NCBI GenBank assembly: GCA_040755995.1
Contig: JBFMAF010000043.1
Location: 122,386-186,385, forward strand
DNA from: Acidobacteriota bacterium
Lineage (GTDB): Bacteria > Acidobacteriota > CAIWXX01
Direction: 5' to 3'
DNA: 64,000 nucleotides
The position numbers and the translations under genes are program-made. Position 1 is the first letter of the stretch. Each line of letters opens with the position of its first letter. Under the pieces are notes generated by a model that saw nothing but the letters and a program-made list of their open reading frames with translations, was not told where the DNA came from and ran no database searches. This document shows, in pieces, positions 1,582-31,812 of this stretch.

Positions 1582-3048
1582 GTGGAAACAACTCTCGACA
1601 AGAGGAAGTTCGTTCCGATCGTGAGCACGATCGCGTTCGCGGCCTTCATGGTGTCGCTCGATTCCTACATCGTGAACGTATCGCTGCCGTCGATCGCGAC
1701 CTTCTTCAATGTCTCCATGAGCAGGGTGACGCTGGTCATCCTCGCCTACATGGTCTCCCTGACCAGCACGACGCTCATCTTTGGAAAGCTGACCGACCGA
1801 TTCGGGCTGAAAGCGATCTTCCTGCTCGGCTACGTCGTATTCTCCATCGGCTCTCTGCTCTGCGGGATCTCCGCGCACCTCCCCATGCTTGTCGCGTCCC
1901 GGTTCCTGCAGGGTATAGGCGGGTCGATGCTGATCATCGCAGCCTATGCCATCATTCCGCGACAGGTTCCGCACGAGATCAGGGGATGGGCCTTCGCGCG
2001 GGTCTCGGTTGTCGCGGCGTTTGGGGTCACCGTCGGGGCCCCTCTCGGCGGTCTCATCACAGGCTACCTCTCCTGGCACTGGGTCTTCCTGATCAATATC
2101 CCTATCGGCATCGCCGCCGTCATCGTCGGCCGCAGAATCCTGCCGGCGGACCGGCCGCGCGAGACCGAAGAAGCGCGGCCGCCGTTCGACATCCTCGGCG
2201 CGCTCCTCAGCTTCCTGGGGATCTTCGCGATCGTCTACGCTCTCAACAACGGCAGCGAAGAAGGATGGGCATCGCCGAAGATCGTTGCGGGCCTCGTTGT
2301 TTTCGCTGTCTCACTTCTCTCGTTCCTCGTCTGGGAAAAGCGCGCACCCGATCCGTTGCTCGCACTGAGGCTGTTCCGGAACGCGCGTTTCGACCTGATG
2401 CTGATCGCCGGCGGCCTGGCATTTATGGTCGTTGCCGGCAACAATCTTCTGCTGCCGTTCTACCTTGAAATCGACAGGGGGCTGGCTCCACAGCGCACCG
2501 GCATAGTCCTGATGCTCTATTCCATCGCCATCATGATCGTCGGTCCCAAGGCGGGGGCCGCTTCCGACCGGATCAAACCTGCGGTGCTCTGCACGATTGC
2601 GATGGGATCGGCCGGGACGGCCTTCCTCTTCTTCGCGCTCCTCCTCCCGCACCAGAGCCCATGGCCCGCGGTGATCTTCCTTGTGTGGCTGGGCGTGTCT
2701 TGTGGCCTCTTCCTCTCGCCGAACAGCAACCAGGTCATGAGCGAAGCACCTGCCGAGGACCAGGGCGCCGCATCGGGTCTCTTCAACATGGTGATGCGGC
2801 TGAGCCTCGTTCTCGGCGCCTGCATACTCGAAACCGTGTTCTCCGAAGTGGTGCCGCACGGAGCCGGGAGCCTTGCGGCGAGCGACACATCGAGCCAAAC
2901 CCTGAACCACGGGTTCGCGCTTGCCTACACCTTGGCCGCAGCGCTGTGCTTCGTTGCGATGGCCGTTTCCCTGATCACCGCGACGCGTGCCCCTGGAAGA
3001 GAGGCGACAGCAACAGCTAAAGATGGATCCAACCTGCCCGCCGGTTGA
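1582..3048 (+). CDS. MFS drug:H+ antiporter (DHA2/EmrB-QacA family)
   Basis: LDSYIVNVSLPSI, GKLTDRFG, RFLQGIGG, WHWVFLINIPIG motifs; GTG at 1582 after AAGAGGAG chosen over the track start at 1264. Confidence 0.9.
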   Translation: METTLDKRKFVPIVSTIAFAAFMVSLDSYIVNVSLPSIATFFNVSMSRVTLVILAYMVSLTSTTLIFGKLTDRFGLKAIFLLGYVVFSIGSLLCGISAHLPMLVASRFLQGIGGSMLIIAAYAIIPRQVPHEIRGWAFARVSVVAAFGVTVGAPLGGLITGYLSWHWVFLINIPIGIAAVIVGRRILPADRPRETEEARPPFDILGALLSFLGIFAIVYALNNGSEEGWASPKIVAGLVVFAVSLLSFLVWEKRAPDPLLALRLFRNARFDLMLIAGGLAFMVVAGNNLLLPFYLEIDRGLAPQRTGIVLMLYSIAIMIVGPKAGAASDRIKPAVLCTIAMGSAGTAFLFFALLLPHQSPWPAVIFLVWLGVSCGLFLSPNSNQVMSEAPAEDQGAASGLFNMVMRLSLVLGACILETVFSEVVPHGAGSLAASDTSSQTLNHGFALAYTLAAALCFVAMAVSLITATRAPGREATATAKDGSNLPAG

Positions 3049-3068
3049 TCGGGCCGGCCTCTCCTCTC

Positions 3069-3097
3069 TTGCCTTCGAGCGAACGATCCGGTAACTT
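3069..3097 (+). promoter_or_regulatory. Sigma70-type promoter, probably leaderless transcript of the HD gene
   Basis: TTGCCT(3069-74)-17 nt-TAACTT(3092-97), then 6 nt to ATG 3104; no SD. Confidence 0.55.
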
Positions 3098-3103
3098 ACT
3101 TCA

Positions 3104-3673
3104 ATGCAATACGATCGAGAAGCTGCCTGGAACTTGCTGGCGAGCTGGACCGAGTCTCATGCGCTTCGCAAGCACGCGCTCGCGGTGGAAGCCGCCATGC
3201 GCGCCCACGCCCGGCGCCTCGGCCAGGACGAGGAGGCCTACGGTGTGATCGGGCTCCTGCACGACTTCGACTACGAGCGCTGCCCCACGATGGAGACGCA
3301 CGTGCGCGAAGGCGCTCGGGTGCTCCGCGAGCAACGATGGCCCGAGGCGTGGGTGCGTGCTATCGAGGGCCACGCCGACTACACGGGCGTTCCGCGGGAT
3401 TCCGACATGGCCCGGTGCCTTTTCGCCGTCGACGAGCTCACCGGGTTCCTGACGGCCGCCGCGCTGGTTCGTCCCGACAAGATGATCGCCAACGTGCAGG
3501 TCGAGTCGGTAGTCAAGAAGATGAAAGACAAGGCCTTCGCGAGGTCCGTGAACCGCGACGATATCAGAAGAGGAGCCGAGGAGATCGGCATGCCTCTGGC
3601 CGAGCACATCGCATTTGTGCGAGACGCAATGGCTACGATTGCAGCCGATCTTGGGCTGGCCGGCCAGGGCTGA
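3104..3673 (+). CDS. HD-domain (HDIG-type) metal-dependent phosphohydrolase
   Basis: KHALAVE..GLLHDFDYE..GHA..DELTGF..KKMKDKAFA pattern. Confidence 0.88.
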   Translation: MQYDREAAWNLLASWTESHALRKHALAVEAAMRAHARRLGQDEEAYGVIGLLHDFDYERCPTMETHVREGARVLREQRWPEAWVRAIEGHADYTGVPRDSDMARCLFAVDELTGFLTAAALVRPDKMIANVQVESVVKKMKDKAFARSVNRDDIRRGAEEIGMPLAEHIAFVRDAMATIAADLGLAGQG

Positions 3674-28127: not shown

Positions 28128-29540
28128 CTACCTGAACCGATAGATGGTCCGCACGTAGAAGGTGCGGTAGTCGTTCCCCTCGCCTCGAGCCTGCTGCAGC
28201 TCAGCTATCAACGTCAGTGCGCCTGCGAGCCTGTACGAAAGAGACGCTCCGATGATCTGGTAGCCGGGAACGGGCGTCAACTGCAGGCTGGTACCGATTT
28301 CGGTGATCACGATAGCGTCGCCGTAGTTGGAGTAGTCGACCTCGGCTGTGAAGTCGCCGATGGATCGCGCACAGGACAGGTATACGACTCCACGCCCTGC
28401 CGAGGCTTCGAGCGAACGCGCGTAGGAGCCGTTGATGTCGAAGCCGGCGAGCTCCACTCCTGAGATCCCGATTCTCACCTGGCGCGTCAGTTGATCGCTC
28501 TGGCTCCTCTTGAAGACGCTCATTCCGCCGTAGACCCTCATGCTCCGGTACAGACGATACCGGACGTCAAACATGAAGTTCTGGTAGTAGTAGTTGCCGA
28601 TCACGTACGGATCCGTGATCAAGCCGCCGTCGGAAGCCGCGATCAGGAGTCTTCTATAGTCGATCGAGCGCCCAAAGCTGAATGAGCCGGAGAACGACAG
28701 GTCCTTGTTCACGGCGACTCCTCCTGAGGCCAGGAAGCGCGAGAGCCGGTTCGCGCCGGGGATGCCCGGGCCGAGCTCGTACTCCAGGCTCTGGTACAGC
28801 GAGGTCCCGGGCCTGGCGTAGATGAAGTTCTGCACCGAGAGGAATCGTCGTTCCGTCTTTCCGCGGAGGAGGACCTCGGTGAGAGCCACATCGGATCTCG
28901 ATCCCCCCGCCGACTGGAGAGTCACGTAGCCGCCCGCCGTGACTGTGTCCGAGGAGAAGGCCGCCGTGTAGAAGTCCGGGACGACCCCGCCGTATCCGCC
29001 CAAGGAGAGGGATCCGTGACGGTAGCCGGCGCGGACGCCGTCGATGGTTCCTATACTACCGACGTCGTAAATTGACATCCGTCCCGCAGACACCTCGTAT
29101 GAAGTGGCGCGGTACGTGGCCTTCGCGTCGTAGATGAAGAGGGTCGAAGGGTGATTCCCGGCGACGTAGTGACGGTTGCGGAGATTCAGGTCGAAGGACC
29201 ACCCCGACTGGCCCTTCGGGCGGAAGGTGGTCGTGATCTGGTAGCCGAGGGTTGTCACCGGGTCCTGACCCGGTACGGCCAGTGCATAGGCATCCGTCGA
29301 GAACCAACCCGTGAGCGCCGGGGTTGGGCGCGCGGCCGGCAACTCCTGTCCGCCCGCGGCGCACGAACCTGCCAGCAGCGCAGCCCCGATCGCTGCCAGC
29401 ACGGAATTCACAACGAACCGGTCGTAGAGGCGGTGGGGAGCTCCTCCAGGCGACCCGGCTGCCGTACTGCTCGCCTGTCCTCGGTTTGCGGTTGAACGTG
29501 CCGGCGGCCGTACCACCAGCCGTCTACCGATGCGCTTCAT
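28128..29540 (-). CDS. Putative outer-membrane beta-barrel protein
   Basis: Hydrophobic signal-like stretch, then alternating Tyr/Gly/Ser-rich strands ending RTIYRFR; ATG 29540 after GGGAGG; true start may lie further downstream. Confidence 0.65.
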   Translation of the reverse strand: MKRIGRRLVVRPPARSTANRGQASSTAAGSPGGAPHRLYDRFVVNSVLAAIGAALLAGSCAAGGQELPAARPTPALTGWFSTDAYALAVPGQDPVTTLGYQITTTFRPKGQSGWSFDLNLRNRHYVAGNHPSTLFIYDAKATYRATSYEVSAGRMSIYDVGSIGTIDGVRAGYRHGSLSLGGYGGVVPDFYTAAFSSDTVTAGGYVTLQSAGGSRSDVALTEVLLRGKTERRFLSVQNFIYARPGTSLYQSLEYELGPGIPGANRLSRFLASGGVAVNKDLSFSGSFSFGRSIDYRRLLIAASDGGLITDPYVIGNYYYQNFMFDVRYRLYRSMRVYGGMSVFKRSQSDQLTRQVRIGISGVELAGFDINGSYARSLEASAGRGVVYLSCARSIGDFTAEVDYSNYGDAIVITEIGTSLQLTPVPGYQIIGASLSYRLAGALTLIAELQQARGEGNDYRTFYVRTIYRFR

Positions 29541-30071
29541 CGTGCTTGCCTCCCTTCGGTCACCTGCGGTACCAGTCAGATAACCGGCATAGAATGCCTG
29601 CCATGTGAACCGAACCCCGGCGACCACACCGCGACTCGCAGCTCCAGGGGAAAGTCGCGTCCGCGGGCGCCCGTCGGACAGCGCGCCCACCAGCACGCTC
29701 AGTTCGTCACGACGGCACCACGTGCGATCGGCTGAGCCACTTTCATCATGAATCCCGGCGCGTTGATACTCGCAGTGCTCGAATCCGTTCTGCCCACGCG
29801 AAATTACCCGCGGCACTCGAAGCTTGTCAACACGATTTCCAGTAGGGATTGGCAGCGTGTGATCTACGTCACACGCTCCGGTGCCGCGGTCTTGGTCGCA
29901 AGCTCTGGCGCGATGCGTCATCGCCACACTCAGCGGGGGCGCAGGAAGTGACGCAGAGACGCGGCGAGGGGTGCAGTCACGTTCCACGCGTCTCGCGCCA
30001 CACCATTGAGATTCCGGTGCCGACCCGCTATGCTCATTGTGGTTATGGACATCATGCGAAAGGTCCGTGAG

Positions 30072-30242
30072 ATGCATACACAGGATTGGATATTGCTGGG
30101 GGTCCTCGCACTCTATCTTGTCTTGCAGTTCTACGTGTTTCCGAAGCTCGGCGTACCCACCTGAGGGTCCCGGGTATGCAAGACCGAGGATCGGTCGAAA
30201 TCCGGCACGACACTGAAGCTCTTCGACGACGAGAAGCACTGA
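30072..30242 (+). CDS. Small membrane protein, candidate selenoprotein (in-frame TGA at codon 31)
   Basis: MHTQDWILLGVLALYLVLQFYVFPKLGVPT-U-GSRVCKTEDRSKSGTTLKLFDDEKH; SD-like GAAAGG; hairpin downstream of the TGA. Confidence 0.6.
30182..30196 (+). promoter_or_regulatory. Putative bacterial SECIS hairpin
   Basis: GACCGA-GGA-TCGGTC; stem starts after 17 nt and G-led loop after 23 nt downstream of TGA 30162-64. Confidence 0.5.
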
Positions 30243-30311
30243 GCCGCCTCCCCTAGCGTCTGCCCCCTTGGCGGCTGCGCAGCGGATCGGACTGCGCACC
30301 TTCGCAGGCGG

Positions 30312-30347
30312 AACTGCCAACTGACAACCGACAACTGCCAACTGCCA
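30312..30347. repeat. Heptamer tandem repeat (AACTGMC family, reverse orientation)
   Basis: AACTGCC AACTGAC AACCGAC AACTGCC AACTGCC. Confidence 0.8.
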
Positions 30348-30420
30348 TCGACTTGAAGCCTCCTCTGCACTGGGCATAGAATGGGCGCCTTCGCCCCGAG
30401 GGCGCAGTATGGAGGGAGAC

Positions 30421-31812
30421 ATGGTTTATATCCCCTGGATCATCGCGGTCTTGGTTGTCGTCGTCATAGTTCTTCTCTGGGCCAAGAATTACCACAAGGT
30501 GGGGCCCAACCAGGTGCTGGTCATCGTGGGCCGTACCAGCACGATCATCGACAAGGACGGGCGCGGAAAGAAGGTGGGCTACCGCCTCCAGGTAGGCGGC
30601 GGAACGTTCGTCTGGCCGATGCTGGAGAGCGCCGAGGTGTTCCCGCTCGAGGTCCAGTCGATTGCGCTTCGCTGCCCCGAGGTGCTCACGAGACAGGGTG
30701 TCGTCATTTCCGCCGAGGCGCAGGGACAGGTGAAGGCTGCCAGCGACGAGCCGCTGCTCCATCGCGCCGTCGAGAATTTTCTTTCGAAAGGAACCTCCGG
30801 AATCTCGTACGTGGCACAGGAGGTCCTCGAGGGGCACATGCGCGGCATGTTCGGAACGATGACGGTCGAGGAGATCTACTCGCAGCGCGAGGAATTCGCG
30901 CGGCGCCTGCGCGAAGAGGTGGCGGCCGATTTCTCGCGGCTCGGCCTGGAGGTTGTCTCGTTCTCGCTCAAGGACATCTCTGATGCACAGGGGTACATCC
31001 AGTCGCTCGGCGCGGGCCGAATCGCCGAGGTCAAGCGCGACGCCGCAATCGCGCAGGCCGATGCCGAGCGTGATTCGGCCATCCACGCGGCACAGTCGCG
31101 GAAGGACGGCGATGTTGCGCGGTTGAAGGCGGAGGCCGAGCTGGCCGAGGCCACTCGCGATTTCGAGTCGCAACGCGCGGACTACCAGGGGGTCGTGAAC
31201 GTGAAACGGGCGCAGGCGGATGCCGCGTACGAGCTCGAGCGGTCGCGACTTGCGATGGACATCAAGCAGCAGGACTACCAGGTGAAGCTGGCCGAGAAGG
31301 AGCTCGCGCGGCAGGTGGAGGAGAAGGAGGTCGCGCGGCGCGAGAAGGAGCTCGAGGCCACCGTGAAGGTGCCCGCGCAGGCAATGCAGTTCCAGGCGAG
31401 GATCGAGGCCGAGACCGAGGCGTATCGCAAGGAGCTGGACGCCAAGGGCAAGGCAGCGGGCGTCAGGCTCGACGGCACGGCCCAGGCCGAAGCCATCACC
31501 GCCAGGGGCCAGGCCGAAGCCTCAGCCATGCGTGAAAAAGCCACCGCCTGGAAGGAATACACCGACGCAGCGCTCGCCGAGATGGTAATCAAATCTCTTC
31601 CTGACCTGGCTCGGGCCGTCTCCGAGCCGCTCTCCAAGGTCGACAAGATCGTCATGGTAGGGGATGCCGAGGGAGTCCAGAAGGTGACCGGGCAGGTCGC
31701 TGCGGTGCTCGCGCAGCTCCCACCCACGATCGAGAGCCTCACCGGACTCAGACTGCAGGATCTGCTCGGCCGCCTGAAGAAAAGCAAGGAGAGCCCTGAT
31801 GAGAAGAAGTAG
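30421..31812 (+). CDS. Flotillin / SPFH domain protein
   Basis: N-terminal TM, GGGTFVWP, LEGHMRG, SFSLKDISD, EA-rich coiled coil, PLSKVDKIVMV; ATG 30421 after GGAGGGAG. Confidence 0.92.
   Translation: MVYIPWIIAVLVVVVIVLLWAKNYHKVGPNQVLVIVGRTSTIIDKDGRGKKVGYRLQVGGGTFVWPMLESAEVFPLEVQSIALRCPEVLTRQGVVISAEAQGQVKAASDEPLLHRAVENFLSKGTSGISYVAQEVLEGHMRGMFGTMTVEEIYSQREEFARRLREEVAADFSRLGLEVVSFSLKDISDAQGYIQSLGAGRIAEVKRDAAIAQADAERDSAIHAAQSRKDGDVARLKAEAELAEATRDFESQRADYQGVVNVKRAQADAAYELERSRLAMDIKQQDYQVKLAEKELARQVEEKEVARREKELEATVKVPAQAMQFQARIEAETEAYRKELDAKGKAAGVRLDGTAQAEAITARGQAEASAMREKATAWKEYTDAALAEMVIKSLPDLARAVSEPLSKVDKIVMVGDAEGVQKVTGQVAAVLAQLPPTIESLTGLRLQDLLGRLKKSKESPDEKK

Follow-up and report, generated by a model that had tools for sequence, protein, structure and literature searches.

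Does the in-frame TGA of a short open reading frame in an Acidobacteriota genome encode selenocysteine (Sec) – and, if it does, what might so small a membrane protein do? We addressed these questions for a locus within a 64,000-nucleotide stretch of contig JBFMAF010000043.1, referred to below as the window.

A hidden gene with an in-frame TGA

Sequence and homologs point to a gene at 30072..30242 on the plus strand (stop codon included) that would encode a 56-amino acid micro-selenoprotein. A preliminary description had placed a Shine-Dalgarno sequence, an ATG, a TGA at codon 31 and a second TGA here, and we located each of them as proposed: the Shine-Dalgarno-like GAAAGG (30058..30063, plus strand) stands 8 nucleotides from ATG 30072, the in-frame TGA of predicted Sec31 occupies 30162..30164 (plus strand), and the second TGA at 30240-30242 ends the frame after 56 residues. 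Three in-frame ATGs lie upstream of 30072 (30030, 30045 and 30054), and we favor the start at 30072 because of the lengths of homologs, the Shine-Dalgarno site and the overlap of a –10 box with 30030. A sigma-70-type promoter-like site, TTGAGA-17-TATGCT, spans 30006..30034 on the plus strand; it was identified by consensus match only, as were the two such sites found in 1 kb against 0.2 expected.

The next gene downstream encodes a flotillin and starts ~170 nucleotides later. Because the small gene has its own promoter-like site and the flotillin gene has another (30353-30382, again a consensus match), the small gene looks monocistronic in the window. The stretch between the small gene and the flotillin promoter contains a short, imperfect repeat built of AACTG(A/C)C-like units (30319-30346).

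On the opposite strand, we rejected a 764-amino acid antisense frame (28128-30422) as a real gene across the locus; its start with a good Shine-Dalgarno sequence is at 29540. The divergent open reading frame so delimited (28128-29540, minus strand, ~470 amino acids) had no match in Pfam or NCBIfam, and by eye its product resembles an outer-membrane beta-barrel. Its frame continues without a stop to 30422, antisense over the small gene, and this overlap may explain how the small gene escaped notice. A perfect TGTGA-N6-TCACA palindrome, presumably a CRP/FNR-type site, sits between the two genes at 29858-29873; it is the sole match in the window, with ~1.1 expected by chance when one mismatch is allowed.

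Standard annotation had been predicted to truncate the protein at its TGA. This was borne out by a database protein, P0002, which is 97% identical and stops right at the TGA. This truncated protein was also the sole match of a word-based protein search. Database entries cut the protein at 30 amino acids or render the UGA as tryptophan, and the cut to 30 amino acids may be why the family has been hidden until now.

Codon 31 is TGA or cysteine across a multi-phylum family

We searched for homologs with the single protein in 101 genomes (its own and related ones) at E values up to 1, and obtained matches in 48. Among the 30 loci listed from this search, 25 show the motif with TGA (the window included) and the remaining 5 were spurious and dropped. 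Overall the gene is present in 31 of the 101 genomes, a tally in which the unpublished genomes G025 and G048 count only as non-carriers; 31 of its 32 matches contain the TGA and the last one precedes a TGA. A separate single-protein scan of genome contigs gave three matches, all spurious and in unrelated frames.

To look more widely, we used two sequence patterns. The first demanded both the TGA and a cysteine five residues after it (+5); 120 loci were taken from an estimated ~2,500 matching stretches. Although the pattern made no such requirement, a hydrophobic segment ~30 codons upstream was present in 120 of 120, as were tails of at least 15 amino acids; in one locus the start is interrupted by a stop. 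The second pattern, our decisive control, was blind to codon 31, and 120 matches were sampled from an estimated ~3,200 stretches. At codon 31, this sample contained 113 TGA, 5 TGT/TGC and 0 TAA/TAG, with 2 non-members, as expected from the proposal that TGA should align with cysteine there and that stop codons other than TGA should be missing. The family's true stop codons, in contrast, are mixed (62 TGA, 31 TAA and 27 TAG).

The suggested conservation past the TGA, including the downstream cysteine, also held. In the window this residue is Cys36 (30177..30179, plus strand), a likely partner of Sec31 in a U-x4-C motif. A cysteine stands at +5 in 92 of the 113 TGA copies and in 5 of 5 cysteine copies, and somewhere in the tail in 108 of the 113; it is missing from +5 in 21 TGA copies, 5 of which have no tail cysteine at all. 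Loci L162, L183, L199, L257, L275, L171 and L214 are members of a subfamily without the +5 cysteine, and several Myxococcota and Nitrospirota copies have a cysteine at or near the C-terminus instead.

The reading frame itself is maintained beyond the TGA. In 211 of 212 unique copies it runs through the 14 codons after the TGA without a stop, against 141 and 121 for the other two frames. Synonymous codons alternate in this region – cysteine is encoded by TGC 125 times and by TGT 61 times, in a set of which more than half comes from the pattern that fixes the cysteine codon, and all six serine codons occur.

A profile search of 1.84 billion representative proteins (E 0.001) returned 2,284 matches. 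Among the top 150, the residue at the site is cysteine in 115, tryptophan in 23 and another residue in 8, and the motif is missing from 4. One tryptophan form clusters with a 30-amino acid member and is thus consistent with a mistranslated TGA. Among 201 sampled genomes from the phylum of one Planctomycete there were 18 matches (17 TGA and 1 cysteine), a lower bound with 32 candidates scored per genome. An ESM Atlas search with a natural cysteine homolog as query retrieved only an unnamed hypothetical cluster.

Judged by record titles, the family extends over Desulfobacterota, Geobacteraceae, Acidobacteriota, Planctomycetota, KSB1, Chloroflexi, Armatimonadota, Spirochaetes, Myxococcota and Nitrospirota. 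Cultured, non-pathogenic carriers include Geomobilimonas luticola (JCM 17780), Pelotalea chapellei (DSM 13688) and Geobacter sp. OR-1. Two IMG/VR contigs (L300 and L301) also match the family pattern, possibly within host flanks.

A SECIS-type hairpin is conserved with the TGA

A perfect 6-bp hairpin with its loop 23 nucleotides after the UGA had been noted, and it is found at 30182..30196 (plus strand): GACCGA-GGA-TCGGTC, a SECIS-type stem closed by a GGA loop. Bacterial SECIS elements are described in PMC13188914 as having a 3-9 nucleotide loop with a G in its first two positions, a 4-16 bp stem and a spacing of 16-37 nucleotides, a geometry shared by the window hairpin. The same source gives an energy of –7.5 kcal/mol or lower; in the window the upper hairpin by itself has –6.8 kcal/mol and the 46-nucleotide region that includes a lower stem has –17.4.

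Alone, the –6.8 kcal/mol hairpin of the window is within chance for its own genome: its folding z is –0.91, and an equally stable G-loop hairpin follows 167 of the 1830 TGA triplets in the window at 16-37 nucleotides. The hairpin exceeds chance only because of its conservation across genomes. A hairpin of –5 kcal/mol or lower follows 102 of 120 TGA loci, compared with 16 of 117 true stops, and after synonymous recoding 8-22 of 120 retain one. In the codon-blind sample the hairpin accompanies 93 of 113 TGA copies, compared with 0 of 5 cysteine copies, so that the predicted conserved hairpin is a property of the TGA form and natural cysteine homologs lack it. Of 22 pairing registers tested, that of the window shows the strongest enrichment (0.53 against 0.39 expected), and family comparison shows several pair types per position among paired positions. 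A second register, with its loop after 16 nucleotides, is typical of Desulfobacterales.

Sec machinery accompanies TGA copies

The preliminary description had asked for selA, selB, selC and selD, and the Sec machinery of the window's genome is complete: selA, selB and selD score over their cut-offs, and a tRNA-Sec with anticodon TCA is present. The selD gene carries an in-frame TGA, making its product a selenoprotein; a comparable hairpin lies downstream of this UGA, its GGC loop starting after 17 nucleotides. No match to the formate dehydrogenase alpha subunit (TIGR01553, E 1e-30) was found in this 99.8% complete genome.

We compared the Sec trait between TGA and cysteine genomes at 50 of the 118 family loci of the codon-blind sample, comprising 45 TGA loci and all 5 cysteine loci. 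selB scored over its cut-off in 42 of 45 TGA genomes and 1 of 5 cysteine genomes, and selA in 39 of 45 and 1 of 5. At least one of selA, selB and tRNA-Sec was present in 45 of 45 TGA genomes. Two TGA genomes lack both selA and selB; each has a tRNA-Sec match (68-75 bits), and a search of both for selD gave no match. Two cysteine genomes have weak matches to the tRNA-Sec model at 50-52 bits, where another tRNA of the window's own genome scores 47. Among the 101 own and related genomes, selA distinguishes carriers (30 of 31) only weakly from non-carriers (52 of 70), since Sec use is common throughout the phylum (selA in 82 of 101); the sole carrier without selA has tRNA-Sec and selD.

One TGA copy (L197, genome G137) has no hairpin, and its genome has a tRNA-Sec and no match to selA, selB or selD – possibly a decaying Sec trait or an incomplete assembly. 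TGA copies together with selA and selB also occur in metagenome-assembled genomes (L184, L227 and L181) labelled Obscuribacterales, Cyanobacteria and Akkermansiaceae, groups in which we know of no Sec users.

Taken together, these sequence comparisons strongly support a Sec reading, and we consider it very likely that the in-frame UGA at codon 31 is read as Sec.

A predicted single membrane helix precedes the putative Sec31

One membrane helix had been proposed, and both methods that we applied predict it at residues 3-26 (30078..30149, plus strand): the best 19-residue Kyte-Doolittle mean is 2.0, and an AlphaFold model, built with Sec as cysteine, contains one helix over the same residues. 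Model confidence is high over residues 1-30 (pLDDT 80-91) and low (~50) in the charged, non-conserved and predicted disordered tail (30197..30239, plus strand). At the end of the helix lies a juxtamembrane signature, P-x-x-G-x-x-T (30141..30161, plus strand), directly before the TGA, which is TGT or TGC in cysteine homologs. Five positions are invariant – P24, G27, T30, U/C31 and C36 – in alignments composed mostly of members having the +5 cysteine.

The N-terminal side has a mean net charge of –0.5 and the C-terminal side carries ~4 lysines or arginines, a bias that suggests an N-out/C-in topology. In two cases the tail is fused to a thioredoxin with a WCGPC motif: one is a TGA form (L056:3932-4447) and the other a cysteine form (P0128). 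A dedicated search for longer fused forms came up empty, a negative of little weight given that these two thioredoxin fusions are known from other comparisons.

Genomic neighbours link the family to YgaP-TM

To clarify the context of the gene, we tallied neighbours within 1.5 kb at the 136 loci, of 162, with both flanks. The neighbours are FmdB zinc ribbon (25), ArsR (23), YgaP-TM (19), thioredoxin (15), TlpA (12), zf-HC2 (12), DUF302 (9), RND (9), rhodanese (5), OsmC (2), CoA-disulfide reductase (2) and MBL (2), in counts that include kin and are not independent. At least one of these 12 families is present at 78 of 136 loci and at 1.8% of random windows of the window's own genome, an enrichment that is overstated because the neighbour set itself supplied the HMMs and one genome served as background. 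None of the 12 occurs at the other 58 loci, nor near the gene in the window or in two relatives of the same family. Neighbour genes often abut the micro-selenoprotein gene directly; with rough start calls, thioredoxin, FmdB, DUF302, YgaP-TM or ArsR genes often start no more than ~20 nucleotides past its stop.

YgaP-TM (PF11127, which we take to be the former DUF2892) is also a near-obligate companion at the genome level. Of the carrier genomes, 30 of 31 encode it, compared with 22 of 70 non-carriers; leaving aside the 10 genomes that seeded the query, it remains in 20 of 21 carriers, and when genomes are grouped by family, YgaP-TM and the gene share a genome in 16 of 17 carrier families. In the window's genome, YgaP-TM lies in an operon on a separate contig from the micro-selenoprotein gene, C11. 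This operon (L294, G000:C11:113900-121000) encodes ArsR, a TolC-like protein, an RND adaptor, an unclassified RND permease, YgaP-TM and a PG0541-family protein, and is a recurring uncharacterised exporter module. The RND subunit scores 261 bits, below the CusA/CzcA cut-off of 701.

Persulfide-responsive ArsR proteins of the BigR/SqrR type have a cysteine pair in helices alpha2 and alpha5 (PMC10054925), and persulfide sensors are reported to be encoded close to RND pumps, persulfide reductases and rhodaneses (PMC10054925, PMC12423496). By eye, we identified a BigR-type pair in ~2-4 of 25 neighbouring ArsR proteins, and three of them score 38-50 bits against a BigR cut-off of 155. This mixture argues against a strict persulfide regulon.

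The relationship to YgaP-TM may extend to sequence. The family profile resembles the C-terminal segment of YgaP-TM over 24 columns (probability 83%; profile score 33.0, against at most 23.9 in 60 column shuffles). Common descent is a lead, the 24 columns being too short for proof, and the PF11127 model itself scores 0 of 103 members. Unlike the micro-selenoprotein, with its one helix, YgaP-TM has two (PMC4730233), and its conserved cysteine precedes the shared segment whereas the Sec and cysteine of the micro-selenoprotein come after it. E. coli YgaP joins this membrane domain to a rhodanese (PMC4730233). A complex prediction for the natural cysteine form with its adjacent YgaP-TM scored 0.02, which we count neither way.

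A putative redox role and its alternatives

On balance, though only just, we favor a Sec31/Cys36 redox site that would be recycled by thioredoxin and would act on sulfane sulfur or thiols where the membrane meets the cytoplasm. SelB would bind the in-frame hairpin and insert Sec31, a step of which we are highly confident. The N-out/C-in topology would then probably place Sec at the cytoplasmic membrane surface. There, an oxidant or sulfane sulfur would attack Sec, Cys36 would resolve the adduct to a selenenylsulfide and a cytoplasmic thioredoxin would re-reduce it, a sequence of events that we regard as reasonably likely. Whether the micro-selenoprotein would serve as an accessory of a YgaP-TM/rhodanese/RND module is evenly balanced in our judgement.

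The main rival is metal binding, in which Sec31 and Cys36 of the same selenoprotein would capture a metalloid or soft metal (Cu, Hg or As) at the membrane by chelation and hand it over to an RND exporter. The abundance of ArsR, FmdB zinc ribbon and RND neighbours fits this reading, as do several neighbouring ArsR proteins that have, by eye, a central cysteine and no BigR-type pair, the extra tail cysteines of some cysteine forms, and the linkage of several membrane selenoproteins to metal resistance in PMC13188914. However, annotated neighbour clusters (21 sampled of 45 listed) contain no mer, ars or cop structural genes, the RND subunit falls below the CusA/CzcA cut-off, and the partner cysteine is shifted or lost in 21 of 113 copies; a movable partner would better suit a resolving residue than a fixed metal ligand. 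The thioredoxin fusions and the rhodanese, CoA-disulfide reductase and MBL-rhodanese neighbours are also a better fit to redox sulfur chemistry, and we regard metal chelation as unlikely.

A more general role, as a thioredoxin tether or as a membrane peptide for thiol or peroxide redox chemistry, would require no specific tie to sulfane sulfur or to YgaP-TM and RND. The gene is an orphan in the window and at many other loci, and its thioredoxin, TlpA, OsmC and zf-HC2/ECF neighbours belong to redox functions of a generic kind. Against so general a role, YgaP-TM is much commoner in carriers than in non-carriers, and YgaP-TM adjoins the gene in several phyla; we think such a role quite doubtful.

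The short distances to downstream genes (from the rough start calls) and the unconserved tail would also suit a selenium-sensing leader, whose UGA readthrough would serve chiefly to control translation of a tightly coupled gene downstream, the peptide being of minor importance. This is improbable, since cysteine forms without the hairpin keep both the motif and the YgaP-TM neighbour, the membrane helix, P/G/T signature and +5 cysteine are all conserved, and in the window the next gene is ~170 nucleotides away behind its own promoter-like site. Least probable is an ordinary stop that ends a 30-amino acid membrane peptide, with the downstream conservation due to an RNA element or a second tiny reading frame at the ATG that often follows: 124 of 212 copies do have an ATG directly after the TGA, no hairpin is significant when taken singly and L197 may be one instance, but TAA and TAG are absent from codon 31 in all 120 sampled matches although true stops are mixed, cysteine homologs are colinear through the site and have methionine next there too, the window has GGG right after its TGA, and the codons past the TGA vary synonymously.

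Relationship to known families

We next compared the family with described proteins. Searches of Pfam and NCBIfam (June 2026) gave no meaningful match among the members scanned; the best recurring Pfam match, PF04602 (14 of 103 members, best E 0.0024), was read as generic transmembrane similarity and rejected as an identity. Searches of PDB sequences, Foldseek, Rfam and plasmids gave no match.

In the literature searched, with subscription journals and bioRxiv supplements outside its coverage, we found no description of the family. No row fits it in a 2026 catalogue of 119 families and subfamilies (Table 1 of PMC13188914), and none lists a single-helix microprotein or a U-x4-C motif; UxxxxU appears in one row, for a rhodanese/DsbD-like fusion of far greater size. 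The accessible portions of PMC12013277 and PMC13745706 contain nothing matching the family, and that of PMC9774590 mentions neither YgaP nor RND. The catalogued bacterial families of PMC13188914 share with the micro-selenoprotein a UGA aligned to cysteine, an in-frame SECIS-type hairpin and occurrence in Sec-trait genomes, whereas the single helix with U-x4-C is peculiar to the micro-selenoprotein.

By architecture only, the micro-selenoprotein is analogous to SELENOK and SELENOS, which 10.1101/2021.05.15.444318 describes as having a short N-terminus, one hydrophobic helix and a disordered Sec-bearing tail; all are small and membrane-bound, and we found no sequence relationship between them. 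Sec is near the C-terminus of SELENOK and SELENOS, whereas in the micro-selenoprotein it adjoins the membrane, and they have 94-189 amino acids where the micro-selenoprotein has ~56 and an in-frame bacterial SECIS.

A different likeness is to RND accessory proteins. AcrZ-type microproteins have ~50 amino acids, one transmembrane helix and a charged tail, and AcrZ is not known to carry a redox motif. The micro-selenoprotein resembles them as a small single-helix protein with RND genes nearby, a minority context (9 of 136 loci).

The family and its architecture are very probably new on this sequence evidence, with a standard decoding mechanism and a function that we infer. More tentatively, and with somewhat less than even confidence, we suggest that these are undescribed multi-phylum single-pass selenoproteins of ~50-60 amino acids in thousands of copies – a counterpart of SELENOK and SELENOS by architecture, perhaps descended from the second YgaP-TM helix, that would act as the selenium redox subunit of a YgaP-TM/RND sulfane-sulfur module.

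Implications

If these assignments are correct, the bacterial selenoproteome would gain a large family that has been overlooked and, with it, a new architecture – one transmembrane helix followed by U-x4-C within ~56 amino acids. By rough extrapolation, 2,500-3,200 stored stretches match the two patterns, with 185,579 species genomes as the base, and sulfate reducers are among the groups they come from. The small size of the micro-selenoprotein brings it within reach of synthesis. The Sec forms would also indicate the working residue of an unnamed family of cysteine proteins, and would provide a handle on stand-alone YgaP-TM proteins and the RND operon.
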